Of a stretch of 44,932 nucleotides of DNA, positions 846 to 44,807 are shown piece by piece (the first letter of the stretch is position 1; each line of letters starts with the position of its first letter). The position numbers were made by a program, and so were the translations under genes. This stretch comes from Citrobacter phage phiNP: sequence record OR565852. One strand, written 5' to 3'. The notes beneath the pieces are model-generated. The model was not told the DNA's origin, made no database searches, and was given only the letters and a program-made list of their open reading frames with translations.

Positions 846-1256
846 ATGTTATATCCCGTTGCTATTGATAAAGGCGATTCATCCTTCGGCGTTCGCGTAC
901 CTGATATTCCAGGCTGCTTCTCTGGCGGCGACAACTATCAGGATGCGATAGAGAGCGTGCGTGAGGCTATCGACGCACATATCGAATTACTGGTGGAAGA
1001 TGGTGAAGCGGTGCCGGAAGCTACCAGCGTGGAAAACTGGCTCGCAGATCCCGATTATACAGGCGTAGTATGGGCACTGGTGGATGTAGACGTTACCCGG
1101 TTAATGGGGAAAGCAGAAAAAATCAACGTAACGCTTCCCTCTTTGCTGATCCGTCGTATCGATCAATTTGTTGCCGCTCATCCCGAATATGGTAGCCGCT
1201 CAGGCTTCCTGTCACGTGTGGCTGCTGATAAAGTGATCGGACGGGAAAAACGTTAA
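846..1256 (+). CDS. hicB: HicB-family antitoxin
   Basis: N-terminal MLYPVAIDKGDSSFGVRVPDIPGCFSGGDNYQDAIESVREAI (HicB fold) with a C-terminal RHH-like DNA-binding tail. RBS GGAGG present. Confidence 0.85.
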   Translation: MLYPVAIDKGDSSFGVRVPDIPGCFSGGDNYQDAIESVREAIDAHIELLVEDGEAVPEATSVENWLADPDYTGVVWALVDVDVTRLMGKAEKINVTLPSLLIRRIDQFVAAHPEYGSRSGFLSRVAADKVIGREKR

Positions 1257-1280
1257 GCCTCGTTAGAGGCTTTAGGTGAA

Positions 1281-1835
1281 ATGATGCGCAAAAAAGAATT
1301 AGCTTTTCTTAAAGAGTGTTTAAGAGTAGAAGTTATCGGAAATAAGGATAAGAAATTCTCATGGGCTCGCACCATCAGACATGCCTGGCGTCAACCTAAA
1401 CGTAGATTTCTTTTCTGGTGGCGCATTGCATCTTATCTATATGGTTCAAATAACAAACAACTAAAAAAAATAGGGAAAAGAATAAATAGAAAATTATTTT
1501 TTAAATATAACACAGACATTGAACTAGGTGTTTCAATTGCCCCCGGATTATATATTGGACATTATAGCGGGATTGTTATCACAAGATATGCGACGATAGG
1601 CAAAAACTTCAACATAAGACAAAACACCACTATTGGATTAAAAAACAATAACACTAATAAAATCACAATTGGTGATAATGTTAATGTTGGAGCAAACTCC
1701 TGCATTATATCAGAAAACATTGTAATTGGTGACAACGTAAAAATAGGAGCTTTTACATTCGTTAATAAAACGATACCCTCAAACTCTATTTATTACACAA
1801 AAAAAGAAAACATCTGTAAAGAATGGGAGGTTTAA
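1281..1835 (+). CDS. Hexapeptide-repeat (LbH) O-acetyltransferase, CysE/WcaB-like; probable lysogenic-conversion gene
   Basis: Repeated [LIV]-G-x4 hexapeptides (IGKNFNIRQNTTIGL..ITIGDNVNVGANSCIISENIVIGDNVKIGA). Strongly AT-rich relative to its neighbours. Confidence 0.7.
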   Translation: MMRKKELAFLKECLRVEVIGNKDKKFSWARTIRHAWRQPKRRFLFWWRIASYLYGSNNKQLKKIGKRINRKLFFKYNTDIELGVSIAPGLYIGHYSGIVITRYATIGKNFNIRQNTTIGLKNNNTNKITIGDNVNVGANSCIISENIVIGDNVKIGAFTFVNKTIPSNSIYYTKKENICKEWEV

Positions 1836-26245: not shown

Positions 26246-27298
26246 TTATTTTTCTGGTAACGCTCTGATTTCTTCAACGGTCTGGTTAAACCGCTCTGTT
26301 TCCAGCTCGACGCCAATAGCCTTACGGCCTAAATCGATCGCCGCTTTTAACGTGGAACCGGAGCCCATGAAGAAATCAGCTACCACATCCCCGGGTCTGC
26401 TGCTCGCGCTGATGATTTGCTTCAGCATGTCAGCAGGCTTTTCGCAGGGATGTTTGCCGGGATAAAACTGGACGGGTTTATGCGTCCATACGTCGGTATA
26501 TGGCACGGCCACCGACACGGCAAAATACCGCCGAAGGGATTTGTACTCCTCCAGCAGTTCGGAATATTTACGGTTCAGTGACTGGTATGTTGCCACCAGT
26601 TGGTGATGAGGCTGCGCCAGTTCGGCACGCTGATGCTTCTCGATAGCGATCCGGGTGAAAAGCTCCTGCAATTTGAGGTAATCCGCTTCACCCGGCAGCT
26701 GCCACTGGCTGGAACCAAACCAGTGCGAAACCATGTTCTTCTTACCAGTGGCCTCGGTGATTTGTTTCGAGGTAACGCCAAGGGATTCCCGGGCATTCTG
26801 AAAATAGGTAATAAGCGGTGTCAGCACATGCTGTTTGAGTTCACCACATTTTGCCGCGTAACCATCGTCTTTGGGCTTGCATGGCCCCTGATAGTGTTCA
26901 GCAAACAGAACACGCTCAGTGGCCGGGAAATACGCGCGCAGACTTTCTTTATTGCAGCCATTCCAGCGACCGCTCGGTTTAGCCCAAATGATGTGGTTCA
27001 GGATGCTGAAGCGGTCGCGCATTAAGATTTCAATATCTGCAGCCAGCCGGTGGCCGCAAAACAGGTAAAGGCTACCGGCGGGTTTCAACACTCGCCAGAA
27101 TTCAGCCAGGCAGCGATCGAGCCAGCGAAGATAGTCTTCATCCCCTTTCCACTGGTTATCCCATCCGTTTGGCTTCACCTTGAAGTAAGGCGGATCGGTA
27201 ACAATCAGGTCGATGGAGTTATCAGGAAGGGTGGCGATGTAATGCAGGCAGTCAGCGTTGATTAACTCAACACTGTTTATTTTTACAGTATTTTTCAT
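26246..27298 (-). CDS. DNA methyltransferase, beta-class N6A/N4C (N6_N4_Mtase-like)
   Basis: DPPYF (motif IV) lies N-terminal to FMGSGST (motif I). First gene of the late operon. Confidence 0.85.
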   Translation of the reverse strand: MKNTVKINSVELINADCLHYIATLPDNSIDLIVTDPPYFKVKPNGWDNQWKGDEDYLRWLDRCLAEFWRVLKPAGSLYLFCGHRLAADIEILMRDRFSILNHIIWAKPSGRWNGCNKESLRAYFPATERVLFAEHYQGPCKPKDDGYAAKCGELKQHVLTPLITYFQNARESLGVTSKQITEATGKKNMVSHWFGSSQWQLPGEADYLKLQELFTRIAIEKHQRAELAQPHHQLVATYQSLNRKYSELLEEYKSLRRYFAVSVAVPYTDVWTHKPVQFYPGKHPCEKPADMLKQIISASSRPGDVVADFFMGSGSTLKAAIDLGRKAIGVELETERFNQTVEEIRALPEK

Positions 27299-27837: not shown

Positions 27838-28533
27838 TCACATTTCCAGCGCATTAGCCACTTCCAGCCCTTCGCGCCTGATGAGGATCGTTTGCAGCGC
27901 CTGAGTGTCAAGCTCGACGAATGCCGCTTTAAATCTCGCCCAGTGCGATGCATACACACGTAACCAGGTTGAACGATCCACAGACATCATTCGCGCCAGC
28001 GCCGCACCGGCGTATTCTTTATATGTGTCATTGCTTCTGGCCGCAGCCACCTCCTGCGCTGCCAGCCAGACAAGACCGACCAGTTTTTTCACTACCCGTG
28101 ATTGCAGCTTCTTCTCTACCCTGCAATTCTGAAACTCATTCCATACATGCTGGCACATCAGCGTCTGGTACCTGAAGTTCAGATCGAAACCGTAGCAGTA
28201 ACGGATCCATGCCTGCTGGTAGTCATCCAGTGAATTGATTACCCGGCGCCACGGCGCGTAACTAAATTCCAGATCCTGCATTGGCGGGAACGGTCGCCGC
28301 CGGCTTCTCGTTTCCAGCACATAAACAGGCGTGGTTAATGCCTTCACAAGCGAGTGTCCACAGCCTTCCCCGCCCTCCAGTTCGATAAGAGGCTGCCCGC
28401 AGCGGGGCGTTTTATTTTTGTCTGCCGGTGGATGTTCGCTAAACGCCTGCAGTTGCCCCTTTGTCCCTTCAGATAAATTCGCCAGGGCGCGCTTTACTTC
28501 TATACGGGTATATTCAATGGCCTGTAAGTTCAT
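27838..28533 (-). CDS. Q: Late antiterminator Q
   Basis: Q-family-like sequence (..QQAWIRYCYG..) and the canonical position upstream of PR' and the lysis genes. Confidence 0.75.
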   Translation of the reverse strand: MNLQAIEYTRIEVKRALANLSEGTKGQLQAFSEHPPADKNKTPRCGQPLIELEGGEGCGHSLVKALTTPVYVLETRSRRRPFPPMQDLEFSYAPWRRVINSLDDYQQAWIRYCYGFDLNFRYQTLMCQHVWNEFQNCRVEKKLQSRVVKKLVGLVWLAAQEVAAARSNDTYKEYAGAALARMMSVDRSTWLRVYASHWARFKAAFVELDTQALQTILIRREGLEVANALEM

Positions 28534-28554: not shown

Positions 28555-29622
28555 TTACGCTTTAACAATTACGCCGATCGCCAGCGCCCGATCCAGAAAA
28601 CGAAACAGCAGTTCCAGCTGTGTGCCATATTTCTGCTCGAACGCCGCTACATCGGCATGCAATTTGTCGTGGCACTCTCTGCACAGAGGGAACACGAACA
28701 GGTCATGGGCTTTGGTAGCAGTGCCACCCATCCCATGACCGATAACATGATGCGGATCGTCTGCCGGACGGCGACAACACTCGCAGGGCTGACTTTTAAC
28801 CCAGCGCGTATACTTCTCATTCTCCCAGCGGCGGCGCTTAGGCCGTAACATGAACGACTCCGGTGATTCAGGATCTGCGCTCAATGCAATAACCCTTGGC
28901 TGCTGCTCCTGCATTACCTGCTGATTTTCCTGTGGCCTGCACCTTTTTAACGATCCAGCCGTTTTTATCCTCCTCTGCAGGGCGACGGTTGGTCGGTTAT
29001 CTGCGGCAATAATGTCGCTTTCTTTATATACAGATGGGAACGGTTCATAGGGCATCTGCATCACTCTGGCTGCCAGTTCTTCCGGAATGGCATCTGCCAC
29101 ACCGACATAAATAGCCCACCAGCACAGCTCAGCGATCGACAATTCCCGCTCGCGATTAAACCGAAGGCCGACCAGCACGGTATCAATGATCCAGTCAATA
29201 ACGTTACGGCGCGCTATACCAGCCAACAGATCGGTTGACTGCTCACGAAGTTTGTTATCGCAGTGCCAGCAAAGCATCATCGCGCCCGGGGCGTGTCGCA
29301 TGGTCACCAGCTCATGATGGTGATAATCCGAGTGCGGGTACTGACATTCACCGATATTCCGCTCAAGCCAGTGATCCAGCCCGGAGAGACTACCCGCAGC
29401 ACGGATCACCCTCTCATCAGTGAAGAATGGGATCAGCGCTTCATCCTCCGCCAGCGGCTGCCGGGCATCAGGAACACGGCCGGTTGACAGCCTGGCCATG
29501 TTCTCCGGTTCGGACTCCACCAGCACGCGCCCCGCGGAGAAAAGGCGCATTAACTCTTTGCCCGGTTTGAGCAGTACCACGCCAAGACGTGGCACAACTT
29601 CAGGGGTTAACAGCGCTCTCAT
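28555..29622 (-). CDS. DUF968 / Ref-like HNH nuclease-domain protein
   Basis: C-terminal CECCRRPADDPHHV...PLCRECHDKLH HNH/zinc motif, as in P1 Ref/DUF968. The start at 29622 gives an ATGA overlap with the C5 MTase stop. Confidence 0.7.
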   Translation of the reverse strand: MRALLTPEVVPRLGVVLLKPGKELMRLFSAGRVLVESEPENMARLSTGRVPDARQPLAEDEALIPFFTDERVIRAAGSLSGLDHWLERNIGECQYPHSDYHHHELVTMRHAPGAMMLCWHCDNKLREQSTDLLAGIARRNVIDWIIDTVLVGLRFNRERELSIAELCWWAIYVGVADAIPEELAARVMQMPYEPFPSVYKESDIIAADNRPTVALQRRIKTAGSLKRCRPQENQQVMQEQQPRVIALSADPESPESFMLRPKRRRWENEKYTRWVKSQPCECCRRPADDPHHVIGHGMGGTATKAHDLFVFPLCRECHDKLHADVAAFEQKYGTQLELLFRFLDRALAIGVIVKA

Positions 29623-31346
29623 GCAACCTCCCGCTGCTGGTTGCATAACTCGGGCAGGTTGGCTTCTACCAGCGCACGGGCAAACGGGGGCGGAACGGCG
29701 TTACCGCAGCGCGCTACCTGCTTGTCTTTTGCATAGCGCTGGCCGCGATAATCACGATCGATAATGTAACCTTCAGGAAAGCCCTGGGCCTTATACAACT
29801 CATGAGGCTGCAACATGCGCATGCCAATATCGACGATCTGGTAGTCGGCACCATCAACCGTTACCAGGCCGAAGCGATCATTGGTTGTGACGGTTCCCAG
29901 CGGTTCATCCAGCGATACGCCGCTTTTTTCATTTCCGTAGTACTTCATCAGGAAGGCGCGAACCTCTCCGATATGCAGACCGCCGGCGGTCACCGTAGGC
30001 ATGGGCTGATCCACTTTTCGACCGTCTTTGCAGGTACCGCGCAGATGAACCAGGTGTGAGGTCACAACAGCATGGTGATCAGTGGTCGTAACGGTATGCG
30101 CAGGTGCATCCATAGCGGCACCCGGCCCCGTATAATTACCGCCGAAGTGTTTCGCCAGAAAGGTGGTCACCAGCTGCGACTTTCCACCACCGCCAGCGGT
30201 TACTGTTCCATTGGGTTCATCAGCGCCGTGTCCGGTACTGTTACCAAACTGGCGGGCTATCATTGGCGCCACCAGGCAGGCGCGGGACTCTTTTAACACG
30301 GTGTGGGCCGGTTTATTTATCGCCCGCGGCTTCGCCTGATATTCGCTACCACCATTACCGGCGATAAACGGGGTAACGACAGCGTATCCATGGGTTTTGG
30401 TAATAGTCTGCAGCGGACTATCAATGCCCTGCCCACGAAAGCAGTCATATGCCGTGCGGCTGCTGGTGTGATTACACTTCACAATAAACGGTGTCGGGTT
30501 GTTCAGCACAAACCGCTCAATACCACGCGCAATGCGCTTCAGCGTATTTTCCGCCAGCAGCTTTGGGCGCTCAAAAATGCTCTGGCAGGGGATTGACCAG
30601 TCGATACACTCCGCCGCGGTACGCCATGGCGCCAGCCTGCCGCTCTGAACTTCCAGCGATTTAGGATCGCCATGTGTTGGCTCTGGCCAGTGAATTTCCT
30701 CACCATCACAGCGCATGACCATGAAGAATCGCTTGCGGATCGTCGGCGCGCCGAAATCGCAGGCTCGCAGTTCGCGATAATCGATGCCGTAGCCCAGCCC
30801 GTTAATAAGGCGCTGCGCCTGCTCGCTGCCTTTAGGTACAGACAGGAACTCGCACACCTCAGACAGGGCGGGATGATCCGCAGGTATGCCGGTGGATAGC
30901 ATGCCAACAAACGCCGCGAAGGTTTCGCCCGCGCGGGATGGATCCGGGCGCATTTCGTCTGCCAGCAGCGGCCCCCACGTTTTGAACTCCTCCACGTTCT
31001 CCAGCATCATGACACGCGGGCGCTTCGCCAGCGCCCAGCGTACTACTACCCACGCCAGACCGCGAATCTCTTTTTTTACCGGCTTAGCACCCTTCGCCTT
31101 TGAGAAGTGGCGGCAATCAGGGCTAAACCAGGCCAGGCCGACCGGATTACCACCAGTGGCCGCCAGCGGATCAACGTCAAACACGGACTCGCAGTAATGC
31201 AGGGTATCGGGGTGGTTAGTTTTGTGCATAGCGATCGCGTTTTCATCGTGGTTGATGGCAATATCCACGCTGCGCCCGATCGCCAGCTCGATCCCGGTAC
31301 TCGCGCCGCCGCCACCAGCAAAGTTATCAACGATAATTTCACGCAT
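29619..31346 (-). CDS. DNA (cytosine-5) methyltransferase, unusually long (575 aa)
   Basis: Motif I DNFAGGGG, motif IV SPDCRHFS, motif VI ENVEEF, motif VIII PTIRKRFF, motif IX MLQPHELYKAQGFP and motif X GNAVPPP. Start taken at MREIIV (31346). Confidence 0.9.
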   Translation of the reverse strand: MREIIVDNFAGGGGASTGIELAIGRSVDIAINHDENAIAMHKTNHPDTLHYCESVFDVDPLAATGGNPVGLAWFSPDCRHFSKAKGAKPVKKEIRGLAWVVVRWALAKRPRVMMLENVEEFKTWGPLLADEMRPDPSRAGETFAAFVGMLSTGIPADHPALSEVCEFLSVPKGSEQAQRLINGLGYGIDYRELRACDFGAPTIRKRFFMVMRCDGEEIHWPEPTHGDPKSLEVQSGRLAPWRTAAECIDWSIPCQSIFERPKLLAENTLKRIARGIERFVLNNPTPFIVKCNHTSSRTAYDCFRGQGIDSPLQTITKTHGYAVVTPFIAGNGGSEYQAKPRAINKPAHTVLKESRACLVAPMIARQFGNSTGHGADEPNGTVTAGGGGKSQLVTTFLAKHFGGNYTGPGAAMDAPAHTVTTTDHHAVVTSHLVHLRGTCKDGRKVDQPMPTVTAGGLHIGEVRAFLMKYYGNEKSGVSLDEPLGTVTTNDRFGLVTVDGADYQIVDIGMRMLQPHELYKAQGFPEGYIIDRDYRGQRYAKDKQVARCGNAVPPPFARALVEANLPELCNQQREVA

Positions 31347-32220
31347 TGACGGCTCCCTGCATGCTGTAGACCAGACCACCAGCCACGGTGATTATTTCGC
31401 TGGTGGGCATACGCTCAAGCCAGAGCTGATTGATGTTCGCCTTCAGCTTGTTCTGCTGGGCCAACTCCAGAGAATCCGCTCCCTCAACCTGATTGAATAC
31501 CAGGCCAACCTCCAGCGGCCAGATACGCGACTCCACTTCTGGCTGTCCCAAGCCAGCAGGCATAACGTCTTCCACCGGGGCTGGCGGCACCACTTTTTCC
31601 GCGGCAAATTGGGCCAGCGACATAAATGCCCGCCCCTTAGCCTCTAGATCACTGCGATGAATGTAGCTGAAACGCTCGCCCCGCCATGTCTTATCGAATA
31701 CCACTATGGCGCCAGCGAAAAATGCGCTGGTAGGCTGCTGTTTCTCGTCTGCCGGGATAAACCATGCAGGCAGGTCGAAGCCAATGCGGCCACGGATGAA
31801 AACAATATGATCAGCATCTTCAGGCCACCATGTTTCACTAGGTGCCGCTTTGATGAGGAACACATAGCGACCGCCCTTCTCACGCATGGCAGAGGCATAG
31901 CTCATGATATGACTCATGCCGGTGATCGCCTGCTTACCGTCGTATTGCGATCGGCTATAGGGCGGATTGCCGAACGCGGCGCCACCGATGGCGATCAGCA
32001 TTTCCGACCAATCCTGTGTCAGAGCGTTATCTTCGGCGGTGTACCAGACCGGGCATTTGGCGTTACTGTCGTCGGCGAACAAATCCAGCATCAGCGGCCC
32101 AAACATCGCATTGATGCCCCAGAACAACAGTTCCGGCGTGCGCCACTGATCGCCAACTTCTTTTAACTCGTGGACTGGCTTGCTACGTAGTTCAGCCAGC
32201 GCCAGGCAGTATTTATTCAT
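31339..32220 (-). CDS. Phage Dam-type N6-adenine DNA methyltransferase (WRTP...NPPY family) with a C-terminal extension
   Basis: DQWRTPELLF, DLFA and GNPPYS motifs. Confidence 0.8.
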   Translation of the reverse strand: MNKYCLALAELRSKPVHELKEVGDQWRTPELLFWGINAMFGPLMLDLFADDSNAKCPVWYTAEDNALTQDWSEMLIAIGGAAFGNPPYSRSQYDGKQAITGMSHIMSYASAMREKGGRYVFLIKAAPSETWWPEDADHIVFIRGRIGFDLPAWFIPADEKQQPTSAFFAGAIVVFDKTWRGERFSYIHRSDLEAKGRAFMSLAQFAAEKVVPPAPVEDVMPAGLGQPEVESRIWPLEVGLVFNQVEGADSLELAQQNKLKANINQLWLERMPTSEIITVAGGLVYSMQGAVNA

Positions 32221-33089
32221 GAGCGAAATCCCGAGTTTTCTGGTAGTGAATAATCCACATCTTTGAAGGTTGCCCGCGCAGCAGGGCTGTGGTTGTTAAC
32301 CCACTCGCCATTTTTGCGCTCAGGGCGACCAGCCTTGTGCCATTTGTTCGCGGCCTGCAGGTAACCAGGGAATTTCGTTGGGTGAAACAGTGTCGTAGGT
32401 CGAAGGTACTCGGACATTTTAAAATCCTGCCCCCATTTCTCGGTCATGTACTCCACAACCAGAGTGAGTTCGTAGATGGTGAACCCCTCCCCCAGCCGGG
32501 CGCGAATATTCTCCAGCGACGTTTTCCCCACCTGATAACGGGATCCTGTTTTTTGGTTCAGAAAAGTCAGAACCTGTTTAGCCTGATCAGTGATCTCCAC
32601 AGCAGGGGCGGGTTGCGACGCAACCGGACAAGAAGTTTTTTTATCTGATGGATCAGTAGTTGATTTTACTGACGGATCCCCGCCAGATTCTGACGGGTGA
32701 AAACCGCCATTTTTATCAGATTTTGACGCCTCAATTTTTGACGGGTCAGATTTTGATGCGTCAGATTTTGACGGGTCAGAATCTGGCAGGTGAGAGAATG
32801 CCGCCGCCTGGAGTTTCCTCACATTAAGTCGATAAACATTGGATGCATTACGGTTACCCTGGCGGCGAGCGGTACGGGTCAACCACCCTTCAGCTTCCAG
32901 CTTTGCAATAGCCGTTCTGACTGTGCTGGACCCCGCCCCAATCTGGCGAGCGATAGTCTCAATGGACGGCCAGGAAACGCCTTCATCGTTACTGAAGTCT
33001 GCCAGGCGTGCCATGATTGCGACACTGGAAATCTTCATGCCAGCCGCCGCACAGCCATCCCAGACGTATGCAGATAATTTAACGCTCAC
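32217..33089 (-). CDS. Replication initiation protein (N-terminal wHTH, phage conserved C-terminal domain; lambda O analogue)
   Basis: GTG start. N-terminal HTH (WPSIETIARQIGAGSSTVRTAIAKLEAEGWL), a central pentapeptide repeat linker and a C-terminal Phg_2220_C-like part. Confidence 0.7.
   Translation of the reverse strand: MSVKLSAYVWDGCAAAGMKISSVAIMARLADFSNDEGVSWPSIETIARQIGAGSSTVRTAIAKLEAEGWLTRTARRQGNRNASNVYRLNVRKLQAAAFSHLPDSDPSKSDASKSDPSKIEASKSDKNGGFHPSESGGDPSVKSTTDPSDKKTSCPVASQPAPAVEITDQAKQVLTFLNQKTGSRYQVGKTSLENIRARLGEGFTIYELTLVVEYMTEKWGQDFKMSEYLRPTTLFHPTKFPGYLQAANKWHKAGRPERKNGEWVNNHSPAARATFKDVDYSLPENSGFRS
32716..32790. repeat. Five perfect-register tandem 15-bp repeats (TCAGATTTTGACGGG consensus) inside the replication gene; candidate ori iterons
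   Basis: Units at 32716, 32731, 32746, 32761 and 32776, with degenerate copies at 32661 and 32683. Confidence 0.8.
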
Positions 33090-33266: not shown

Positions 33267-33971
33267 TTAGCCCCCCATCAATTCGGAGGCGTAGCGCTCG
33301 GCGATCCACTGGACGCCACGAGGTGTTACGCGGGTTTGCGTATAGGCATGACCGAAATCAGACGTGCCGGTTTTGACAGTGAACAGGCCCTCCCGCTGGC
33401 GCAGGGCATGAGGCAGCAAATTGCCGGACTGGCGGAACAAAACCTTGTCACGCACCAGTGCATCTATCATGGCTTTTTCCGGCATGTTGAGGATCTTCGC
33501 CGTCTCACGCAGGCCTTTGGCGCCGCCAGACTCTACGTAGTGGTTTACGAACGCCACCTTTGGCGCGTCCTGCTGAACCTTATGTGACAGCTGCGCATTC
33601 TGCTCTGCCATATCGGCGGCCAGGCGGAGCGCTTCGGGGAGGGTCTGGGGAATTAATGCTGTGCTTTCCAGCTCCTGCCAGCGATCCACAACCGCAGCCG
33701 TAAACTCAGGAGAAAGTCTGGCAACCAGCACCAAAGAATCGCGTTTGTTGAACCGATATTCCTGATAAACGTTGCCGTTATGCTCAAAATCGAACTGCGC
33801 CAACGGCGCGGTTAAAAGACCAGCAGCATTCAGGCGCTCAGCGGAGCGTTTGACGTCACCATGTTTACTCTGCACAAGAGCGGCGATTTCACGGCTGCTC
33901 ATTGTCACTACGCCGCCGAATGCAGGTGAAAAACCAGCAGCCTGTGCGCGATTAATCAATTGCTGTGGCAT
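33267..33971 (-). CDS. Rha-family regulator fused to a KilAC antirepressor domain
   Basis: N-terminal Rha motif ([24 protein letters not shown]) and a C-terminal KilA-C/ANT-like domain. Start at 33971 follows RBS GGAGG. Confidence 0.75.
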
Positions 33972-34149
33972 TTTGCTGACCTCCCCGGGAAATAAAGTCA
34001 CCCACAGCCCACTCGGTAAAGCTGTGGTTCACGAGTGCCCAGCCGCCGGGTACTCTTACGGCATAGCAATACGTGACATCGCCTTTGCCACCACGAACTG
34101 GCAGCGCGCGAAGTTGCGAACGCTGGCTATTTGCGGTTAAATTGCTCAT
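33952..34149 (-). CDS. Small hypothetical protein
   Basis: MSNLTANSQ... with an ATGA overlap with the upstream gene's stop. Confidence 0.35.
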
Positions 34150-34703
34150 GCGGATTTCTCCATACACATAGATTTATCTGCCACGACGCCCGGAGCTGCA
34201 CACTCGCGGGCGTCACTCTTTTCTGGCTGGCAGAAAACGCGGAAAAGCAGCGTTAAATGCTCCTGCCACTTAGCCATGACCTGATAGCTGTTCTCCTCTA
34301 TCTGCGCCCTTTCGGCATCGTCAATCACGCCGTCTGCTGTCGCCTTTCGCACATACTGAGAATGACGCCCGATCCATTCGACCGACTCCATCAGACGTTG
34401 ATTGATGTCGGCGTTATCAACTTCTTCCACGTCCGCCAGCGGCACGAATACGCCGTTTGAATGGCGCGCTATGGCATCGGCGATGTGGTTTGAGCCACCA
34501 GCGCTCTGCAGCACCATTGCCCAGCCCAGCGGGAAAACCTGGTCGCCGTCGGCACGCAGGCGGTTAAAGAGCGAATTTTCCGTAACATCAAGCCATTCAG
34601 CCGCCTCGGCGTATCCGCCAGGCAGTTCAGCGATCGTTTTTTTAATTGCTGCCACCAGCCAGGCTGGCTGACGTTCAACTTTCCACTGCGGTTCGTTACC
34701 CAC
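34146..34703 (-). CDS. CII-like / YmfL-like early regulatory protein (function uncertain)
   Basis: Second gene of the PR operon; no firm motif recognised. Confidence 0.4.
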
Positions 34704-34959: not shown

Positions 34960-35050
34960 AAAGCCCCCTATAATTGCGCAATACGCATATTAATGTGTAC
35001 TTACGACTTGCGCAAGTTGCTTTGCATATCACGCAAAAACAACCTGTAAT
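34924..35050. promoter_or_regulatory. Divergent PR/PRM control region with TTGC-N7-GCAA operators
   Basis: Operator-like 15-mers at 34924-34938, 34974-34988, 35008-35022 and 35022-35036. PR on the minus strand: TTGCGC (35010-35015), 17 nt, TAATAT (34987-34992). PRM: TTTGCA (35021-35026), 18 nt, TGTAAT (35045-35050), which places the start site at or next to the cI ATG. Confidence 0.6.
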
Positions 35051-35057
35051 AGAACGC

Positions 35058-35753
35058 ATGAACATAGGAAACCGCATTAGAGAATTGCGCCTCGCAAGAG
35101 GCATGAAAATTTCTGACCTTGCTGATGCTGTTGGTATTGACGGCGCGAACGTTTCTCGCGTAGAGACCGGTAAGCAAAAGTCATTTACTGAACAATCGCT
35201 TAGCAAATATGCAAATGCGCTCGGCGTTGATGTTGCTGAACTCTTTACACCTTCCATAAATGAAACTACTGTATACAAATCCAGTGAGAATAATCCAGTT
35301 TATGGAGAGGATGACCCGGTGTTTAGAGTCGAAATGCTTGATGTCAGTGCCAGCGCTGGCATGGGTTTTATACAGGGTAGTGATGTCATCGATGTCATCA
35401 GATCGATTGAATACAACAGCGAACGGGCGGTCGCTCTGTTTGGTGGAAGAACGCCAGATACCGTTAAAGTGATCAACGTTCGCGGTGATAGTATGGCTGA
35501 TACTATAGAGCCAGGTGACCTAATCTTTGTTGATGTTTCAATTAATGAATTTGATGGTGATGGCATTTATGTGTTTGGTTTTGACGAGAAAATTTATGTC
35601 AAACGGTTACAGATGATTCCCGATAAAATTCTGGTGATATCTGATAATCCCAAATACAGAGAGTGGTCAGTTGATCAATCTAACGAAGACCGTTTTTATG
35701 TGTTTGGGAAAGTGATGCTTAGCCAATCACAAGCAATGAAAAGACACGGATAA
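35058..35753 (+). CDS. cI: CI repressor (XRE HTH + S24 LexA-like autopeptidase)
   Basis: MNIGNRIRELRLARGMKISDLA... HTH; C-terminal VRGDSM...KR S24 motifs. Confidence 0.9.
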   Translation: MNIGNRIRELRLARGMKISDLADAVGIDGANVSRVETGKQKSFTEQSLSKYANALGVDVAELFTPSINETTVYKSSENNPVYGEDDPVFRVEMLDVSASAGMGFIQGSDVIDVIRSIEYNSERAVALFGGRTPDTVKVINVRGDSMADTIEPGDLIFVDVSINEFDGDGIYVFGFDEKIYVKRLQMIPDKILVISDNPKYREWSVDQSNEDRFYVFGKVMLSQSQAMKRHG

Positions 35754-37117: not shown

Positions 37118-37173
37118 ACCGCTGACAACTAATTCACTGCCACCAATTCGATCATTTGTTAATAAGGAATTTT

Positions 37174-38001
37174 ATGTCTCAGGTAGACAGCGGTACTTTT
37201 AAGCAGGTTAAAGATCTGGTTCTTTCTGGTTATCACCTGAATGATATTAACGGCCTGGCTTGCCCAACAGCATTACTCCCGGAAGAAACTCGCGTTGAAA
37301 GCCTCGAGCGCTTTTCTCTTGAGCGCTTCCGTTTCCGTGGGGCCATGACCACAACCAGCATTGATGATTTTGCCCGTTATTCTAAAGGCTACGCCAGTAC
37401 CGAGGAACCTGCTCGCTGCTTTATTGATGCGGACAATATGACTGCGCGATCCGTGTTCAATATCGGCACGCTGGATAATCCGGGCCATGCTGATAACGTT
37501 GCTGCAATCACCCTGAAGCAGACTGCGCCTTTCCGCGCGCTGCTGGCGATCAACGGCGACCGCCTGAAGCAAAAGCAAATCGCTGAATGGCTGGAAGACT
37601 GGAGTGATTATCTGCTGGCCTTTGATGCTGACGGAAATACCATGCAAATTTCACAGGCTGCTCAGGCTGTTCGACGCATCACTATCCAGCAGGCCACCCA
37701 ACAAGATCATGAAGACGGTGATTTCAGCGGGAAAAAATCGCTGATGCAGAGTGTTGAGGCCAGCAGCAAAGATGTTATGCCTGTAGCGTTTGAGTTCAAA
37801 TGCGTGCCATACGAAGGGCTTGGTGAGCGTGCATTCAGCCTGCGCAATAGTCTGCTCACTGGTGACGAACCGCGTTTTGTACTGCGCATTGTTCAACTGG
37901 AAGCGCAGGAAGAAGCGATCGCCAACGAATTCCGCGACCTGCTGATCGGCAAATTCGACGGCGAGCCAGTGGAAACCTTTATCGGTAACTTTAAAGCGTA
38001 A
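37174..38001 (+). CDS. YfdQ-like (DUF2303) protein
   Basis: Start at MSQVDSG after RBS AAGGA. Resembles E. coli CPS-53 YfdQ as I remember it and is followed by a YfdR-like gene. Confidence 0.65.
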   Translation: MSQVDSGTFKQVKDLVLSGYHLNDINGLACPTALLPEETRVESLERFSLERFRFRGAMTTTSIDDFARYSKGYASTEEPARCFIDADNMTARSVFNIGTLDNPGHADNVAAITLKQTAPFRALLAINGDRLKQKQIAEWLEDWSDYLLAFDADGNTMQISQAAQAVRRITIQQATQQDHEDGDFSGKKSLMQSVEASSKDVMPVAFEFKCVPYEGLGERAFSLRNSLLTGDEPRFVLRIVQLEAQEEAIANEFRDLLIGKFDGEPVETFIGNFKA

Positions 38002-38867: not shown

Positions 38868-39190
38868 ACGAACAAACTACAGTTAAACACCTCCATTTCT
38901 ACGGTGCCAGCGATGATCTGCTGGAATGCGAAGGCGCGATCCGCGAGGAGATTGGTTGCTATAACTCTCCAGGCATCTATCACCTCAAATCCGCCGAGGG
39001 TGAAATGCAGGTTGTCGGTTATTACCTCGACTCCGGGCTGTGGAGCATCGGAATCAGCCAGGTCGCCGAAGATACGCCGCTGCCAGCGTGGCCCGTCACT
39101 TACGCCATGCATGAGCGTGGTTACAGTGTCCAGCTCACCATCACTGTGCCGGACGACGCCATTCTGGTTTTGTCAGAGGAAGATGAATGA
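38864..39190 (+). CDS. Hypothetical protein
   Basis: Translationally coupled on both sides. Confidence 0.55.
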   Translation: MNEQTTVKHLHFYGASDDLLECEGAIREEIGCYNSPGIYHLKSAEGEMQVVGYYLDSGLWSIGISQVAEDTPLPAWPVTYAMHERGYSVQLTITVPDDAILVLSEEDE

Positions 39191-39918
39191 GCATTACCCT
39201 GCATAACGCCGACTGCTTCGATGTTTTTCCGACGATTGCCAGCGGTTCCGTAGACATGGTGTGTGCGGATATTCCCTACGGTACCACGCAGTGCTGCTGG
39301 GATTCGGTGCTTGACCTCGAGGTGATGTGGCATGAACTGTACCGCATCGCCAAGCCGTCAGCGGCAATTGTCCTGTTTTCGGCTCAACCGTTTACCGCGG
39401 TGCTGGTCGGCAGCAACCTGGCGGACTGGCGATCCGAGTGGATTTGGGAAAAAGGCAACGCCACCGGCTTCCTTAATGCCAAAAAACAGCCGTTGCGTGC
39501 CCATGAAAATATAGAGGTGTTTTATCGTCGCCAGCCGACATACAACCCGCAGTTTACCCATGGTCATGCGCGCAGAACATCGAAGCGCAAAACCGTCAAT
39601 TCGGAGTGCTACGGCAAAGCGCTGACGCTGACTAAGTATGACTCAACCAGCCGGTACCCGCGCGATGTGCAGTTTTTCTCGAGTGACAAGCAAACCGGTA
39701 ATTTCCATCCCACCCAGAAGCCGCTGGCGCTGGTTCAGTACCTGATCGAGACCTACAGCAACCCCGGCGATACGGTGCTGGATTTCACAATGGGAAGCGG
39801 TACCGCAGGAGTCGCCTGCCTGCGTGTCGGGCGCTGCTTTATTGGCATTGAGAAAGACACCTCAATATTTCAGGTCGCGCGTCATCGTATAGGGACTAAG
39901 CAGGAGCATGCAGCATGA
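39187..39918 (+). CDS. DNA methyltransferase, beta-class N6A/N4C with DIPY catalytic motif
   Basis: ADIPYG (motif IV), HPTQKP and FTMGSGT (motif I). Confidence 0.85.
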   Translation: MSITLHNADCFDVFPTIASGSVDMVCADIPYGTTQCCWDSVLDLEVMWHELYRIAKPSAAIVLFSAQPFTAVLVGSNLADWRSEWIWEKGNATGFLNAKKQPLRAHENIEVFYRRQPTYNPQFTHGHARRTSKRKTVNSECYGKALTLTKYDSTSRYPRDVQFFSSDKQTGNFHPTQKPLALVQYLIETYSNPGDTVLDFTMGSGTAGVACLRVGRCFIGIEKDTSIFQVARHRIGTKQEHAA

Positions 39919-40112
39919 AGATCCGCTGTTTTTTCGGGCTTCATAAATGGGTGCTGTTCAAGAAAGAGCTTCACCCATATCAATCTCTTAACGGACTGCA
40001 GCCAACTATTATTTTCCACTATGGGTGTAATGGCTGCGGCAAGACCAGAACAGAGACTCGCGAAGAGGGTTACTGGCATTCTTTTAAACCATCAGATTTG
40101 GAGCACATGTAA
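39915..40112 (+). CDS. Small Cys-containing hypothetical protein
   Basis: GLHKW...CNGCGK; coupled to its neighbours. Confidence 0.5.
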   Translation: MKIRCFFGLHKWVLFKKELHPYQSLNGLQPTIIFHYGCNGCGKTRTETREEGYWHSFKPSDLEHM

Positions 40113-40679
40113 TGAACCACCTTATGATCGACCTAGAAACGATGGGTAATAAGCCTGCTGCGCCAATTGTCGCGATCGGCGCTGTGTTTTTCGACCCGAA
40201 AAGCGGTGAGCTGGGCGCCGAGTTCTATGTGGCCGTCAACCTCGCCAGCGCCATGGATCAGGGTGCTACCCCTGACGGTGACACGATCCTGTGGTGGCTG
40301 AAGCAATCAGCGGAAGCTCGCGCTGCTATTTGTACCGACGACACTAAGAACATCGCCGAAGCGCTCTCCGAGCTTAGGTCATTTATTAGCCGTAACTCTG
40401 ACAAACCGCGTTATCTGAAAGTCTGGGGCAATGGCGCCAATTTCGACAACGTTATTTTGCGTTCAGCCTATGAACGCGCCGGCCAAACCTGCCCGTGGCA
40501 ATTCTGGAACGACAGCGACGTGCAGCACCATGGTGCTGCTCGGCAAACAGCTTGGTTTCGATCCAAAGCGCGATATGCCATTTGATGGTGTAGCCCACAA
40601 CGCACTGGCCGATGCCCACCACCAGGTGAAATATGTATCGGCAATCTGGCAGCGACTATTGCCCGCCAGCGCCGAATAA
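40112..40679 (+). pseudogene. DnaQ-like 3'-5' exonuclease interrupted by a 1-nt frameshift
   Basis: ORF 40112-40585 carries MIDLETMG...GNGANFD. The last motif (HNALADA) sits in ORF 40431-40679, in another frame. The frames switch at about 40520-40530. Confidence 0.7.
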
Positions 40680-40709: not shown

Positions 40710-40928
40710 ATGGAGAAATTTATGCTGAGCCTCGATTGTGTTCCCATCTCAACTTATTGCAAAGAGACAGGCGAAACTCCTGATGCGATCAACAAGCGCG
40801 TACAGCGCGGTGTGTGGCGTGAAGGGGTTCAGGTGCTGAAAGTCGAAGGCGTTAAGGAGAGATGGATAGATCTTAGTGAGGTTGCAAAATGGGCCAGACA
40901 GAATCGCCTAAACTCCCGCGCGGCGTAA
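40710..40928 (+). CDS. xis: Excisionase-like protein (DUF1233-type)
   Basis: Small basic wHTH-like protein whose 3' end overlaps the int start. Confidence 0.65.
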   Translation: MEKFMLSLDCVPISTYCKETGETPDAINKRVQRGVWREGVQVLKVEGVKERWIDLSEVAKWARQNRLNSRAA

Positions 40929-42055
40929 CCATCAGGAAACATCGCAACGGTCAAACCATCAATATTACTTTTACATATAAAGGGGTGAAATGCCGTGAGC
41001 CTCTTTCTAATCTGGACGTAACCCCTAAAAATATCAAATACGCCGAGCGCACACTCGGCGAAATCCATAACAAGATCGAAAGGGGAACGTTTGTTTACGC
41101 GGAATACTTTCCCCGTTCTACCCGATTAAAAATTTTCGGAAACGCTGCCGCAGGAAAAACGGTGAAGATGTATCTGGATGAGTATCTGGTGATCTGCGAA
41201 ACGAGGAAGCTTTCCCCTTCGACAATAGGCGGGTACAAGAAATGCCGAAGCGCATTGTCATCACTTCATATTTATCCTGCAAGTGAGTTGACGCCGGCTG
41301 CATTGAAGACATGGATCCAGAACCAGAAAACGACATTGAAGACCATCCGAAACCAGTTGTCATTCCTGCGTTCTGCATTGGATGAAGCAGTGACAGATGG
41401 TGTGCTTCAGATTAACCCTGTATCTCTGGTAACAGCCTCACGATACCAAAGTGATAAATCAGAGGCAGAAAGTAGTTATGTGGTTGATCCGCTATCACCA
41501 GCAGAAGTTGATGCTTTGCTCTCTGCTACTGGCAATAAGCAGTGGGAGAATCTTTTCCGGTTCGCGATACAAACAGGGCTGCGTAGTTCCGAATTGTGTG
41601 CTCTTCGTTGGCGTGATATCGACTTTGTAGGGAAGACTGCCCATATCCAGAGCGCCAGTGTTGTTGGTGTGATCAAAGGGACCAAGACAAAAGCAGGTAC
41701 CCGTAAAGTTGAACTCACAGATGAAGCAATGTCGGCTCTGATAAATCAGAAACCGTTCACGTTCATGAAGGGCGCTACTGTCTTTGAGGATCCAAAGACC
41801 AATAAGCCGTGGGCAAGTGCTGATGCAATTAGAAAAAAGGCATGGGTGCCGACATTGCGAAAGGCTGGTATTCGGTACAGAAACCCATATCAGACTAGAC
41901 ATACATTCGCCACATGCCATATCAGCCGGGGAACAAACTTGTTCTGGCTTGCGACTCAAATGGGACATAAAGGCCCAGAGATGCTTTTCCGTCACTACGG
42001 CTCATATCTGAAGGAATATGATGGACAAACAAGCCTGAAGAAGATAAAAATATAA
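40889..42055 (+). CDS. int: Tyrosine integrase with N-terminal arm-binding domain
   Basis: LPRGVTIRKHRNGQTINITFTYKG arm domain. Catalytic LRSSELCALRWRDI, TRHTFAT and GHKGPEMLFRHYGSY motifs. Confidence 0.9.
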   Translation: MGQTESPKLPRGVTIRKHRNGQTINITFTYKGVKCREPLSNLDVTPKNIKYAERTLGEIHNKIERGTFVYAEYFPRSTRLKIFGNAAAGKTVKMYLDEYLVICETRKLSPSTIGGYKKCRSALSSLHIYPASELTPAALKTWIQNQKTTLKTIRNQLSFLRSALDEAVTDGVLQINPVSLVTASRYQSDKSEAESSYVVDPLSPAEVDALLSATGNKQWENLFRFAIQTGLRSSELCALRWRDIDFVGKTAHIQSASVVGVIKGTKTKAGTRKVELTDEAMSALINQKPFTFMKGATVFEDPKTNKPWASADAIRKKAWVPTLRKAGIRYRNPYQTRHTFATCHISRGTNLFWLATQMGHKGPEMLFRHYGSYLKEYDGQTSLKKIKI

Positions 42056-42112
42056 TCCATGTCTGAATTATTGGCCGCAATTTGTGGCCATTTCATGGAA
42101 CAAGGTACAAAC

Positions 42113-43846
42113 ATGGCAAATCCAATAACCAAACTAAAAAAAATAAACGTTGTAAAATTTCGAGGACTAAAAAATATAAATATAGAATTTGGTTCGCGAC
42201 TAACTGTTATTTGTGGTAAAAACGGCACATCTAAATCGACAATTCTTGGTATTATCGCCCAAATTTTTAGTTTTACAAAAGATCTGTCTAAGAACCCCGA
42301 GGTTGATTTAACACAATATAAGACATTAACTAATGGCACCTTCAAGTCAGCTTTCAGTGAACATTTTAGACTTTCAGAACAATTTGATACTGCAGGTTCA
42401 ATGGAAGTCAGGATTAGTGTTTATGATGGTGCATCTAACAAACATCTTGAAAAGCTAACATTGGGTCTATACAGCTCCAGTGACAGGGATAAATCAAGGC
42501 CAATAGTCAGGGGCAATGATTCCATACCGGGGAAAAACCAAAGTAGAAACGTCACTCATCCAGTTATTTTTCTAAGCTTAGCAAGACTTCTCCCTATTAC
42601 TCTACGGACTGATTACTCAACAAGGGATGTTCAGTATATCAATGAAAACGCAGATGATATAAGAATAATGAGCAATCAACTCTTACTTAAGAATAATGGG
42701 TGCTCAGTAACAGCCACGAAAGGGACGATCGATTCAATGGTCGTACACGGCGATAATTACGACCATCAATCAGTCTCTGTTGGTGAGGATAATGTTGGAC
42801 AATTAATTCAAGCAATATTTTCCTTTAAAAGGCTAAAAGAACTTTATGACGATTATCATGGAGGTATTTTATTAATTGATGAAGCGGACGCAGGTCTTTT
42901 CCCTGCTGCTCAGTTAGAATTAATTGACATTCTAGCTAAAGCAGCTAAAAAATATGACTTGCAAATAATCATGACTTCTCACTCACCATTAATAATAGAA
43001 GATATTTTCAATCGTTCCAAACAAGATGCCAACGGATTTAAAACAATATATCTGACAGATACTTATGGTGATATTAAAACAAAAGACAATCTATCATGGG
43101 CCGATATCAATGCTGATTTGCATGTTGAAACTGTAAAAATAAATGATGAGATTAGCCTTCCAAAAGCCAACGTATATTTTGAAGATAAAGAAGGCTTCGA
43201 TTTTTTCAAACAATTGATAATTGATAGAAGAATAAACAGAATATTGAATCCATTAGGAAACATAAATATTAGTTGTACTGCTATCCTAGATTTAATGGCT
43301 AGAAAAGTCCCTGAGTTTACTAACAAAAGCCTAGTTGTCTTAGACGGTGATGTTGCTCTCGATAACAGTGACAATGCTAAAAAAGCGAAAAAAGAGAGAA
43401 GCTTATGCTTGCTTCCAGGCATTCTTCCCCCAGATCAAATGATTTTTGAATTCTTATATAACTTACCTCCAGACGATATATATTGGAACAATAAAAATAG
43501 ATTTACAAAAGCAGTATTTATGAAAATAACAAAAGACATAATTACAACATTAAAAATAAGTAACTATCCTATTGATTTACTAAATTCTATAGAGAATTAT
43601 AAAAAATCAAACAAAAACCATGGCGGAGTGGTTAGAAAACTATTTAAAGATTTTGTCCATACGCCTGAGTTCCTAGCACAAGTAAAAGGGCGAGTTAAAG
43701 ATAATCCTTATCGATATTGGGTCGAGAAACACCCCGTAGAATCCGATAATTTCAAGCATGAATTAATCAAAAACCTTAAAATTATTATGACAAATGGACA
43801 TGGCGTTGACTCTGCTACCATCACTTCGTATCTGTCTGGCAACTAA
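42113..43846 (+). CDS. OLD-family-like protein: N-terminal ABC/AAA_15-type ATPase plus C-terminal Toprim-like domain
   Basis: Walker A GKNGTSKST, signature-like SVGEDNVGQ, Walker B ILLIDEADAGLFP, H-loop TSHSP, then YFEDKEG ... VVLDGDVA (Glu + DxD). The start could instead be 42059 or 42095. Confidence 0.7.
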   Translation: MANPITKLKKINVVKFRGLKNINIEFGSRLTVICGKNGTSKSTILGIIAQIFSFTKDLSKNPEVDLTQYKTLTNGTFKSAFSEHFRLSEQFDTAGSMEVRISVYDGASNKHLEKLTLGLYSSSDRDKSRPIVRGNDSIPGKNQSRNVTHPVIFLSLARLLPITLRTDYSTRDVQYINENADDIRIMSNQLLLKNNGCSVTATKGTIDSMVVHGDNYDHQSVSVGEDNVGQLIQAIFSFKRLKELYDDYHGGILLIDEADAGLFPAAQLELIDILAKAAKKYDLQIIMTSHSPLIIEDIFNRSKQDANGFKTIYLTDTYGDIKTKDNLSWADINADLHVETVKINDEISLPKANVYFEDKEGFDFFKQLIIDRRINRILNPLGNINISCTAILDLMARKVPEFTNKSLVVLDGDVALDNSDNAKKAKKERSLCLLPGILPPDQMIFEFLYNLPPDDIYWNNKNRFTKAVFMKITKDIITTLKISNYPIDLLNSIENYKKSNKNHGGVVRKLFKDFVHTPEFLAQVKGRVKDNPYRYWVEKHPVESDNFKHELIKNLKIIMTNGHGVDSATITSYLSGN

Positions 43847-43854
43847 TTGATTGA

Positions 43855-43891
43855 AAAGGGCTTTATATGATGGCCATAAAGCCCTTTTTTT
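43855..43891 (+). terminator. Intrinsic terminator between the ATPase and methylase genes
   Basis: Perfect 12-bp stem AAAGGGCTTTAT / ATAAAGCCCTTT followed by a T run. Confidence 0.8.
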
Positions 43892-43925
43892 GATATACTT
43901 TAGACTTGACATTTAGAGGTATCAT

Positions 43926-44807
43926 ATGCGTTTTAACACCCCACTTCGTTATCCTGGCGGCAAAGGCAAGCTTTCTAATTTCATGCTTCGGATTATTGAA
44001 GATAATAAGCTTTCGCCTATACATTATGCAGAGCCATATGCTGGGGGTGCTGGTTTAGCGCTGAAGCTGTTACACTTAAATGTAGCTGAAAAAATCATTC
44101 TTAATGATATTAATATCTCAGTTTATGCTTTTTGGCACAGTGTATTAAATAATGCAGATCATTTATGTGCTTTAATTGAGGATACTGAAGTCACAATGGA
44201 TGAGTGGTTCAAACAGAAAGAAATAATTAATCATCCAAGAGACCATGATATGCTAACAATTGGTTTTTCTACCTTTTTTCTTAATAGAACAAATCGTTCT
44301 GGAATATTAAAAGGCGGTGTAATTGGTGGTAAAAATCAAGAAGGGCAATGGAAACTTGATGCTCGTTATAACAAGAGCGATTTAATTTCTCGGATTCAGA
44401 AAATATCAAAAAACCGTGAAAGAATAGATTTGTATAACATGGATGCAATTGATTTCATAAAAAAAATAGTTGTTCAATTGCCTAAAAAATCATTAACATA
44501 TTTAGATCCGCCATATTATATAAAAGGTAAGGGATTATATATCAATCATTATGAACATAGTGACCATGTTAATGTTGCAAAAGTAGTGCAGCATGATATT
44601 AAAACACCGTGGATTGTTTCTTACGATAACACTCCTGAGATCCAAGGTATGTATAAGGCATCATCATTAGTGTATGGAATAAACTACAGTGCTCAAGATC
44701 GATATAAGGGCTCAGAAGTGATGTTCTTCAGTAAACGATTGAAAGTCTTTAAAACCGATGATCCAACTAAGGTAAAAGCACCTACCAATAAAAATGCTAT
44801 GAGCTAG
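43926..44807 (+). CDS. D12-class (alpha) N6-adenine DNA methyltransferase, Dam-like
   Basis: PLRYPGGK, EPYAGGAG (FxGxG) and LDPPYY motifs in alpha-class order. Confidence 0.9.
   Translation: MRFNTPLRYPGGKGKLSNFMLRIIEDNKLSPIHYAEPYAGGAGLALKLLHLNVAEKIILNDINISVYAFWHSVLNNADHLCALIEDTEVTMDEWFKQKEIINHPRDHDMLTIGFSTFFLNRTNRSGILKGGVIGGKNQEGQWKLDARYNKSDLISRIQKISKNRERIDLYNMDAIDFIKKIVVQLPKKSLTYLDPPYYIKGKGLYINHYEHSDHVNVAKVVQHDIKTPWIVSYDNTPEIQGMYKASSLVYGINYSAQDRYKGSEVMFFSKRLKVFKTDDPTKVKAPTNKNAMS

Follow-up and report, generated by a model that had tools for sequence, protein, structure and literature searches.

A tandem array of six short units in the variable region of a predicted cytosine-C5 DNA methyltransferase from Citrobacter phage phiNP

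Citrobacter phage phiNP (sequence record OR565852) was analyzed as a single stretch of 44,932 nucleotides, hereafter the window, which is a lambdoid prophage that carries a complete C5 DNA methyltransferase gene (positions 29619-31346, minus strand; ATG at 31346-31344, stop at 29621-29619) encoding a protein of 575 amino acids (aa). We found that this protein bears six tandem copies of a short unit between its catalytic motifs VIII and IX, that units of this kind vary as whole modules among its relatives, and that relatives studied experimentally protect DNA at many different sites. The best-supported reading, in which we place about even confidence, is that the protein serves the phage as a C5 methylase against restriction and owes its broad target range to an array of short, recombining recognition units that are used alternatively.

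The open reading frame (ORF) extends over 29619-31379 (minus strand) and encodes 586 aa when read from a GTG, or the 575-aa form when read from the ATG at 31346. The latter is residue-for-residue the same as CBG89358.1 of Citrobacter rodentium and is present on 224 contigs, and we regard it as the real product. It matches PF00145 (E 2.5e-20, 73.6 bits, cut-off 22) and the DNA methyltransferase family phrog_116 (E 2.3e-104), and scores 54.6 bits with TIGR00675, under that model's cut-off of 100.65 because the unit array interrupts the profile. The N-terminal part of the catalytic domain (aa 1-208; 30723-31346, minus strand) spans motifs I to VIII, with motif I (FAGGGG, aa 9-14), motif IV (SPDC, aa 75-78), motif VI (ENV, aa 116-118) and motif VIII (PTIRKRFF, aa 201-208, with TIRKR at aa 202-206) legible in the translation. 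The C-terminal part (aa 508-575; 29622-29825, minus strand) holds motif IX (MLQPHELYKAQGFP, aa 511-524, with QGFP at aa 521-524) and motif X (GNAVPP, aa 548-553). The catalytic residues of motifs I, IV, VI, VIII, IX and X are in order and invariant among 149 homologues.

The catalytic domain was also modeled with confidence. A first AlphaFold2 run, based on 61 close homologues, gave a useless model (mean predicted local distance difference test score, pLDDT, of 34.6) because the alignment was too shallow, and a second run based on 149 sequences of 53-96% identity reached pLDDT values mostly of 85-98 for aa 1-250 and 510-570, with dips at approximately aa 80-100 and values of 87-93 in the C-terminal part. 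Searched with Foldseek, this model retrieved 3g7u, DNMT1, M.HhaI and M.HaeIII at a probability of 1.00, the best being 3g7u (E 1.1e-9), a putative DNA methyltransferase from the E. coli prophage CP-933R. This prophage C5 enzyme is both the nearest solved structure and the best single-sequence match in the PDB, but it is only 376 aa long and aligns with the window protein at the catalytic motifs only. Motifs IX-X in the C-terminal part also align with their counterparts in 3g7u and in plant enzymes of the DNMT1 type (Arabidopsis MET1: 9ped, 9m5u, 9v4p). By family match, motifs and predicted fold the protein is thus a C5 DNA methyltransferase, as the initial annotation had called it, with cytosine-C5 methylation itself a predicted activity, and the array lies in the variable, target-recognizing region of an enzyme with intact catalytic motifs.

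The pattern P-x-x-T-[VI]-[TL] occurs in the protein at aa 311, 346, 378, 415, 448 and 482, with spacings of 35, 32, 37, 33 and 34 aa. The initial annotation had described six such copies between motifs VIII and IX, and all six peptides as well as both flanking motifs were located; together the peptides cover aa 310-499, which corresponds exactly to the interval it had given, 29850-30419. Its module size of about 25-50 aa was too loose, since the units measure 29-37 aa. Aligned over their full length, the units share the consensus xDxPxxTVT-loop-hVxxFh-xxxG-loop, in which a variable loop, a hydrophobic strand and a Gly-rich loop follow one another, with pairwise identities of 22-41%. We call the P..T element with the ten residues that follow it the head of a unit, and the remainder its tail.

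Could such a pattern have arisen by chance, or stem from an annotation artefact or a broken gene? We found no point in support of this explanation and consider it refuted. In 20,000 composition-preserving shuffles of the protein, none reached the six observed copies of P..T[VIL][TLS] (mean 0.08, maximum 2). When each unit was left out in turn, a profile of the other five recovered it in place with 3.1-19.3 bits; of 500 shuffled proteins, 0-5 scored as high. The ORF is intact and its product is the database protein found on the 224 contigs, and thousands of homologues retain the array. Recent DNA duplication, slippage and assembly artefact were likewise ruled out as sources of the repeats. Beyond one 23-nt stretch of 74% identity we found no similarity among the units at the DNA level, and the duplication is therefore old and has been maintained.

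The six units follow one another without gaps on the minus strand, and each could be assigned to a type from the comparison of homologues described below. Unit 1 (aa 308-342; 30321-30425; IDSPLQTITKTHGYAVVTPFIAGNGGSEYQAKPRA) is of type E and was recovered in the leave-one-out test with 15.0 bits and 0 of 500 decoys, and unit 2 (aa 343-374; 30225-30320; INKPAHTVLKESRACLVAPMIARQFGNSTGHG), of type F, is the weakest copy, with 3.1 bits and 5 of 500 decoys. Unit 3 (aa 375-411; 30114-30224; ADEPNGTVTAGGGGKSQLVTTFLAKHFGGNYTGPGAA) gave the highest score, 19.3 bits, and is classed as type B, but the alignment of homologue units reveals it as a hybrid in which a head of type I is joined by a tail of type B. 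Unit 4 (aa 412-444; 30015-30113; MDAPAHTVTTTDHHAVVTSHLVHLRGTCKDGRK) is of type A (17.7 bits). The last two, unit 5 (aa 445-478; 29913-30014; VDQPMPTVTAGGLHIGEVRAFLMKYYGNEKSGVS) of type C and unit 6 (aa 479-507; 29826-29912; LDEPLGTVTTNDRFGLVTVDGADYQIVDI) of type D, are constant across the family, and unit 6 runs straight into motif IX. In unit 5, G456 and H458 are invariant among the 149 homologues, and T451, A454, E461, V462, R463, A464, F465, L466, K468, Y469 and Y470 are nearly so. Upstream of the array is a conserved, family-specific linker (aa 209-307; 30426-30722, minus strand) with nearly invariant columns at W220, P221, H225, A244, S256, I257, F258, L264, R271 and G275. It ends, just before unit 1, in a strand and loop (PFIVKCNH...FRGQG) similar to the tail of a unit, which we infer to be a "tail 0".

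We then turned to the family. A profile of the six window units, run against 1.84 billion cluster representatives (clusters at 50% identity), matched 2,272 clusters at E<=1e-3; 1,214 clusters passed the stricter limit of E<=1e-10. As many as 12 units were matched in a single protein. Named members come from Enterobacterales, from Burkholderia, Ralstonia, Bordetella and Achromobacter, from Paenibacillus, Cohnella and Brevibacillus, and from Sporomusaceae and Terrimicrobium, and a member is encoded in 98 phage records, including F116, ZF40, Mx4, RcapNL and phiARM81. The 120 best homologues are 57-96% identical to the window protein, 507-941 aa long, and carry 4-10 units each. Their 840 units cluster into 12 types, which are arranged in 24 architectures whose relative order is always collinear: the window protein reads EFBACD, a four-unit relative (P0053) EFCD and a ten-unit relative (P0063) EHGFBKAACD. 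P0053 carries a fusion of a B head with a C tail (ADEPNGTVTAGGLHIGEVRAVLMKYY), and among 320 family members heads and tails pair semi-independently, with a limited set of head types that is conserved across phyla. Within a unit type, the loop residues are nearly invariant across genera. Among close relatives, units are thus gained, lost and recombined, and their number changes by whole units. Types C and D are constant family-wide, including the distant Paracoccus members. A register-shifted alignment with windows of four units taken from homologues, intended to add diversity at each position, was dropped because MAFFT paired orthologous units in place of shifted ones; it did expose hybrid units.

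Several other features emerged from the same set of proteins. Four members (P0125, P0191, P0234 and P0239) have an intein-like insertion of approximately 200-400 aa right after the catalytic Cys of motif IV (SPDC|FPAG...VHNC|KHFS), and a further one (P0084) is annotated with the Hint domain PF13403. A more distant subfamily, with motif I in the form ADLFCGAGG (P0168, P0170, P0182, P0193, P0219, P0228, P0229 and P0238), has very regular units, S[VI]D[DE]P[LI]PT[IV]T....ALVEPF[IL]V, in up to approximately 10 copies. The 90%-identity cluster of the window protein also includes proteins of approximately 295 aa named "phage N-6-adenine-methyltransferase", which probably stem from fused or overlapping calls of the adjacent Dam-like gene.

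Evidence on what such enzymes do comes from relatives. Two m5C methylases from prophages of Paracoccus aminophilus (JCM7686_0772 and JCM7686_2655), expressed in E. coli, were reported to have "relaxed substrate specificity" (Dziewit et al. 2014, PMC3925955). Among the matches to the window protein there are only two P. aminophilus homologues (P0488 and P0489), carried by a 3.6-Mb contig, of 703 and 685 aa with 8 units each, which are 36-41% identical to it by blastp and 68-69% identical to Pyei1_p05, as the authors of PMC3925955 state for their enzymes. Closer still is p29 of the Aeromonas phage ARM81mr, with 59.1% identity over 100% coverage in tblastn and 5 units; p31 of phiARM81ld is 49.7% identical. 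The constant pair of elements ...EVRAFL.KYYG... and ...DRFGLV... is found in the window protein, in ARM81mr p29 and in both P. aminophilus homologues. ARM81mr p29 is likewise cited as relaxed in specificity (Dziewit & Radlinska 2016, cited in PMC5537653), and we class ARM81ld p31 with the same relaxed-specificity enzymes. The Paracoccus and Aeromonas ARM81 enzymes thus resemble the window protein in belonging to the same full-length family, in their tandem units and in being orphan genes of temperate phages; they differ in that the window protein has six units in another combination and is known from its sequence alone. The initial annotation had named close homologues of single specificity with the same repeats as a finding that would speak against multispecificity. 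None was found, and the characterized homologues are broad in range.

The published protection assays allow this breadth to be described site by site (PMC3925955 Table S6). Partial protection was recorded against approximately 16 enzymes altogether: AluI (AGCT), BsuRI (GGCC), HpaII and MspI (CCGG), EcoRII (CCWGG), Bme1390I (CCNGG), NciI (CCSGG), Hin6I (GCGC), PauI (GCGCGC), TaiI (ACGT) and XhoI (CTCGAG), as well as PvuII, CaiI, BglI, HpyF10VI and EcoO109I, with CAGCTG among the sites. Cleavage was complete at CGCG, TCGCGA, ACGCGT, GATC, GGNNCC, CCWWGG, CTAG, CATG, GANTC, CCGCTC and CCATGG. A single dinucleotide rule (CC, CG or GC) was considered and rejected on reading this table, because sites containing CG and sites containing CC fall on both sides and AGCT contains neither. 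A handful of discrete targets of 4-5 bp may account for the table more simply.

These data bear directly on the main rival explanation, that the units fold together into one extended beta-structure, a composite recognition domain that makes few base-specific contacts and reads DNA laxly, in a short or degenerate context, with the number of units tuning affinity or processivity rather than the set of targets. We rate it as rather unlikely, although it has points in its favor. Protection by the P. aminophilus enzymes was partial at every positive site; the shared hydrophobic strands and the re-pairing of heads and tails fit a continuous sheet better than beads; and non-specific methylases, such as M.EcoGII and ARM81ld_p56, occur in similar phage operons. 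M.EcoGII, the Hia5-type enzymes and ARM81ld_p56 are, like the window protein, orphan phage enzymes; they modify most sites, thereby evading restriction, and in the lysogen they are often silent, but they belong to the N6-adenine class and lack a repeat array. A composite domain is harder to reconcile with the inability of one dinucleotide rule to separate protected from unprotected sites, with the strong conservation of loop residues per unit type across genera, which would be unexpected if the loops read nothing, and with the gain and loss of whole units while the gene persists.

Known recognition domains offer a further comparison. The D-x-P-x-x-T-[VIL] element is a conserved piece towards the end of the variable region in ordinary C5 methylases. 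The prophage SPbeta enzyme MtbP has exactly two copies of it, spaced by 47 aa (SPTLTTMGGGHREPKI and EPAFTVNTIDRHGVAIGE), with the cores SPTLTTMGGG and EPAFTVNTIDRHGVA. MtbP methylates two targets, GGCC and GCNGC. Units 3 and 5 (TVTAGGGG and TVTAGGLH) on the one hand, and units 4 and 6 (TVTTTDHHAVV and TVTTNDRFGLV) on the other, resemble the two MtbP elements, and the head of unit 4 in particular resembles EPAFTVNTIDRHGVA. In monospecific enzymes the element is found once, just before motif IX, as in M.HaeIII (WNEPAFTVQASGRQ, by comparison with the PDB) and in a CATCGATG-specific enzyme (WDKPSPTITTQ; PMC11954522), which bears out the expectation of the initial annotation that monospecific enzymes have few such elements. 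At the level of pattern only, the heads of units 3 and 5 (T-V-T-A-G-G-G-G and T-V-T-A-G-G-L-H) are also like recognition loop II of M.HhaI in its PDB sequence (T250-LSAYGGG), and heads in general are like this loop and the M.HaeIII element EPAFTVQASGRQ. The Gly/Gln/Arg-rich tail of a unit is placed like loop I of M.HhaI (G233-KGGQGER240). Thr250 and Gln237, which lie in these loops, are well studied, to judge from the deposited structures of the T250G and Q237S mutants. In the array, every Gly-rich tail with its Gln, Arg, Lys or His precedes the Thr of the following unit. Read by eye, the distance from strand to Thr is 20 aa in the array and 18 in M.HhaI, and that from Gln to Thr 12 and 13, respectively. 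The true functional unit may be the tail of one unit together with the head of the next, in which both M.HhaI loops would be reproduced in compressed form and neighbors would have strands in common. M.HhaI and M.HaeIII share the catalytic fold and motifs with the window protein, but have a single recognition domain and a single target. One other enzyme that was considered as a related system, M.BatI (PMC8936443), is unrelated and small.

A further parallel is with the multispecific enzymes of Bacillus phages (M.SPRI, M.Phi3TI, M.Rho11sI, M.H2I and MtbP) and M.PhiBssHII. Like the window protein, these are temperate-phage orphans with one catalytic core and with contiguous T-[LVI] recognition elements between motifs VIII and IX, the content of which varies among relatives. 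The window family differs in its catalytic lineage, with SPDC.HFS at motif IV and the long conserved linker, and in its units, which are shorter, more numerous (4-12), share strands and recombine their heads and tails. "One unit, one target" is said to have been proven for the Bacillus-phage enzymes by the Trautner laboratory. The role ascribed to these enzymes is protection from many host restriction systems (review, PMC12707154).

A different explanation is that only units 5 and 6 work as a recognition domain, the upstream copies being decayed or silent and serving as spacer or in regulation. In its favor, types C and D adjoin motif IX and are present in nearly all members, including those of Paracoccus; the single domain of M.HhaI also has two T-[VL] elements (T226-V227 and T250-L251); and the sole strands predicted in the array by the second AlphaFold2 run lie in unit 6 (aa 493-497 and 500-504). 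"Pseudo-domains" were reportedly described in the Bacillus-phage enzymes by Lange et al. in 1991. The upstream units are nonetheless constrained, with type-specific residues nearly invariant across genera and neither frameshifts nor low-complexity decay, and one fixed domain would not account for the many unrelated sites protected by the relatives. We consider this explanation improbable and rank it after the lax composite domain.

Our preferred reading of separate, alternatively used units suggests how the enzyme might work. A single catalytic domain would be joined to six recognition units in place of one target-recognizing domain, each composed of a Gly-rich loop with Gln, Arg, Lys, His or Asn, the D-x-P-x-x-T-[VI]-T element, a second variable loop and a strand shared with the next unit. 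We infer that the broad range is due to these separate units, that all six are active, and that they dock singly beside the active site, like the tandem domains of the multispecific Bacillus-phage enzymes. Several discrete short targets would then be methylated and many host restriction systems blunted together, and recombination between units, by adding, deleting and re-pairing them, would change the repertoire. A stronger version, which we put forward only tentatively, is that each unit of approximately 33 aa is a self-contained, portable mini recognition domain for one discrete short target. No smaller one would be known for a C5 methyltransferase, and an enzyme would combine 4-12 specificities, with new ones arising as heads and tails recombine.

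A number of findings weigh against unit-by-unit recognition. In statistical terms the units resemble proven recognition domains weakly: the unit profile falls in the correct register on the two MtbP elements, but with only -2.0 and 0.6 bits (0.9 bits for an earlier six-unit profile), reaches 2.1 bits on M.HaeIII and does not detect M.HhaI. The unit spacing of 32-37 aa is shorter than the 47 aa of MtbP. When the family profile was compared with PDB sequences, only the catalytic motifs aligned, and no solved recognition domain was detectably related. Structure prediction, which the initial annotation had proposed as a check, left the array without confident structure in the second run, with pLDDT below 50 for aa 285-505 and no secondary structure except in unit 6. 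The constant C and D units may be structural, and one family member, phi2LM21_p23, is inactive in E. coli. Finally, the protection observed with the P. aminophilus enzymes was partial and obtained by overexpression, and may therefore reflect star activity or lax recognition. Of the multispecificity of the Bacillus-phage kind suggested by the initial annotation, whole-unit modularity and broad protection by relatives thus speak in favor, whereas the similarity of the units to known recognition domains is marginal.

The genomic setting of the gene was examined next. The order of genes is that of a lambdoid prophage, here one of Citrobacter rodentium: CI-like repressor (34974-35753), CII-like (34146-34703), Ant-like (33267-34001), O-like replication protein (32217-33089), a phage Dam-type N6-adenine methyltransferase (31339-32220, minus strand; PF05869, E 1.1e-43; phrog_111), the C5 methylase, a 363-aa DUF968/HNH-like protein (28555-29646, minus strand; phrog_96), a Q-like antiterminator (27838-28533) and another methyltransferase of N6/N4 type (26246-27298, minus strand; PF01555, E 1.4e-42; phrog_67 and phrog_304), with lysis and structural genes beyond; the integrase is at 40889-42055. 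The methylase gene lies in the delayed-early (replication/nin-like) operon, where its start overlaps the stop of the Dam-like gene, its upstream neighbor, by 8 nt. The DUF968 gene is directly downstream, and its start overlaps the 3' end of the methylase gene by 28 nt. No endonuclease partner was found adjacent to the methylase gene, which is thus, given its position, an orphan gene in a delayed-early operon. This position argues for an enzyme made when the phage replicates, which would methylate progeny phage DNA.

The same setting recurs among relatives, with a replication-region location common to those in ARM81mr, phi2LM21 and Flotzy. The pair of Dam and C5 genes is annotated in 12 E. coli chromosomes as well as in the coliphages Flotzy and Eeyore. 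In these relatives the N-terminal two thirds are approximately 79% identical to the window gene in DNA, and the array region is not alignable.

The window as a whole contains five DNA methyltransferases in 45 kb (26246-27298, 29619-31346, 31339-32220, 39187-39918 and 43926-44807), which comprise two of the N6/N4 class (PF01555), the phage Dam (PF05869), one D12-class Dam-like enzyme (PF02086) and the C5 enzyme; three of the five are in the early-right operon of the prophage. Just past the integrase is a gene pair of low GC content (approximately 34%; 42059-44807, plus strand). Its first gene encodes a 595-aa AAA_15/AAA_21 ATPase resembling PtuA, AriA and GajA, and its second a D12 adenine methylase that matches PADLOC PD-Lambda-5_B (E 2.8e-123), so that by sequence the two look like a PD-Lambda-5-type defence system at the prophage end. 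The structural region has at its far end (846-1835, plus strand; GC approximately 43%) a pair of genes, the first for a HicB-like antitoxin (PF15919) and the next for a hexapeptide-repeat acyltransferase, which are probably moron cargo. The early-left region, between repressor and integrase, encodes a DUF2303 protein and a protein with an Rv2179c-like 3'-5' exoribonuclease domain (37156-38001 and 40112-40585, respectively; plus strand).

How much of this is new? In a recent review (2025, PMC12707154), the only phages said to combine multiple recognition domains within a single methylase are temperate phages of Bacillus, and in the literature on tandem or multispecific recognition-domain phage enzymes of Gram-negative hosts, with REBASE outside the scope of the search, we found no description of this architecture. 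The accessible portions of the reports of "relaxed specificity" from 2014-2019, which are based on restriction-protection assays, do not mention repeated units. The broad activity of the family has therefore already been published, and its modular anatomy apparently has not. The array is wider in scope than the initial annotation knew, but it introduces no new principle. Enzymes of this family are largely invisible in existing methylomes, because PacBio sequencing sees 5-methylcytosine poorly and the genes are silent in lysogens.

Provided that the units act as independent recognition modules, arraying them would be a widespread strategy (2,272 clusters spread over many phyla, and 98 phage records) that employs much smaller modules than those of the Bacillus-phage enzymes. 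They would constitute a natural combinatorial code for the targeting of cytosine methylation in Proteobacteria, Firmicutes and beyond, far exceeding the Bacillus-phage examples, and would explain in structural terms why the phage enzymes of Paracoccus and Aeromonas show their published "relaxed specificity". Such compact, swappable parts would be of use in methyltransferase engineering and as tools against restriction barriers in transformation. For the temperate phages themselves, the list of units carried by an enzyme would predict which restriction systems a phage can evade.

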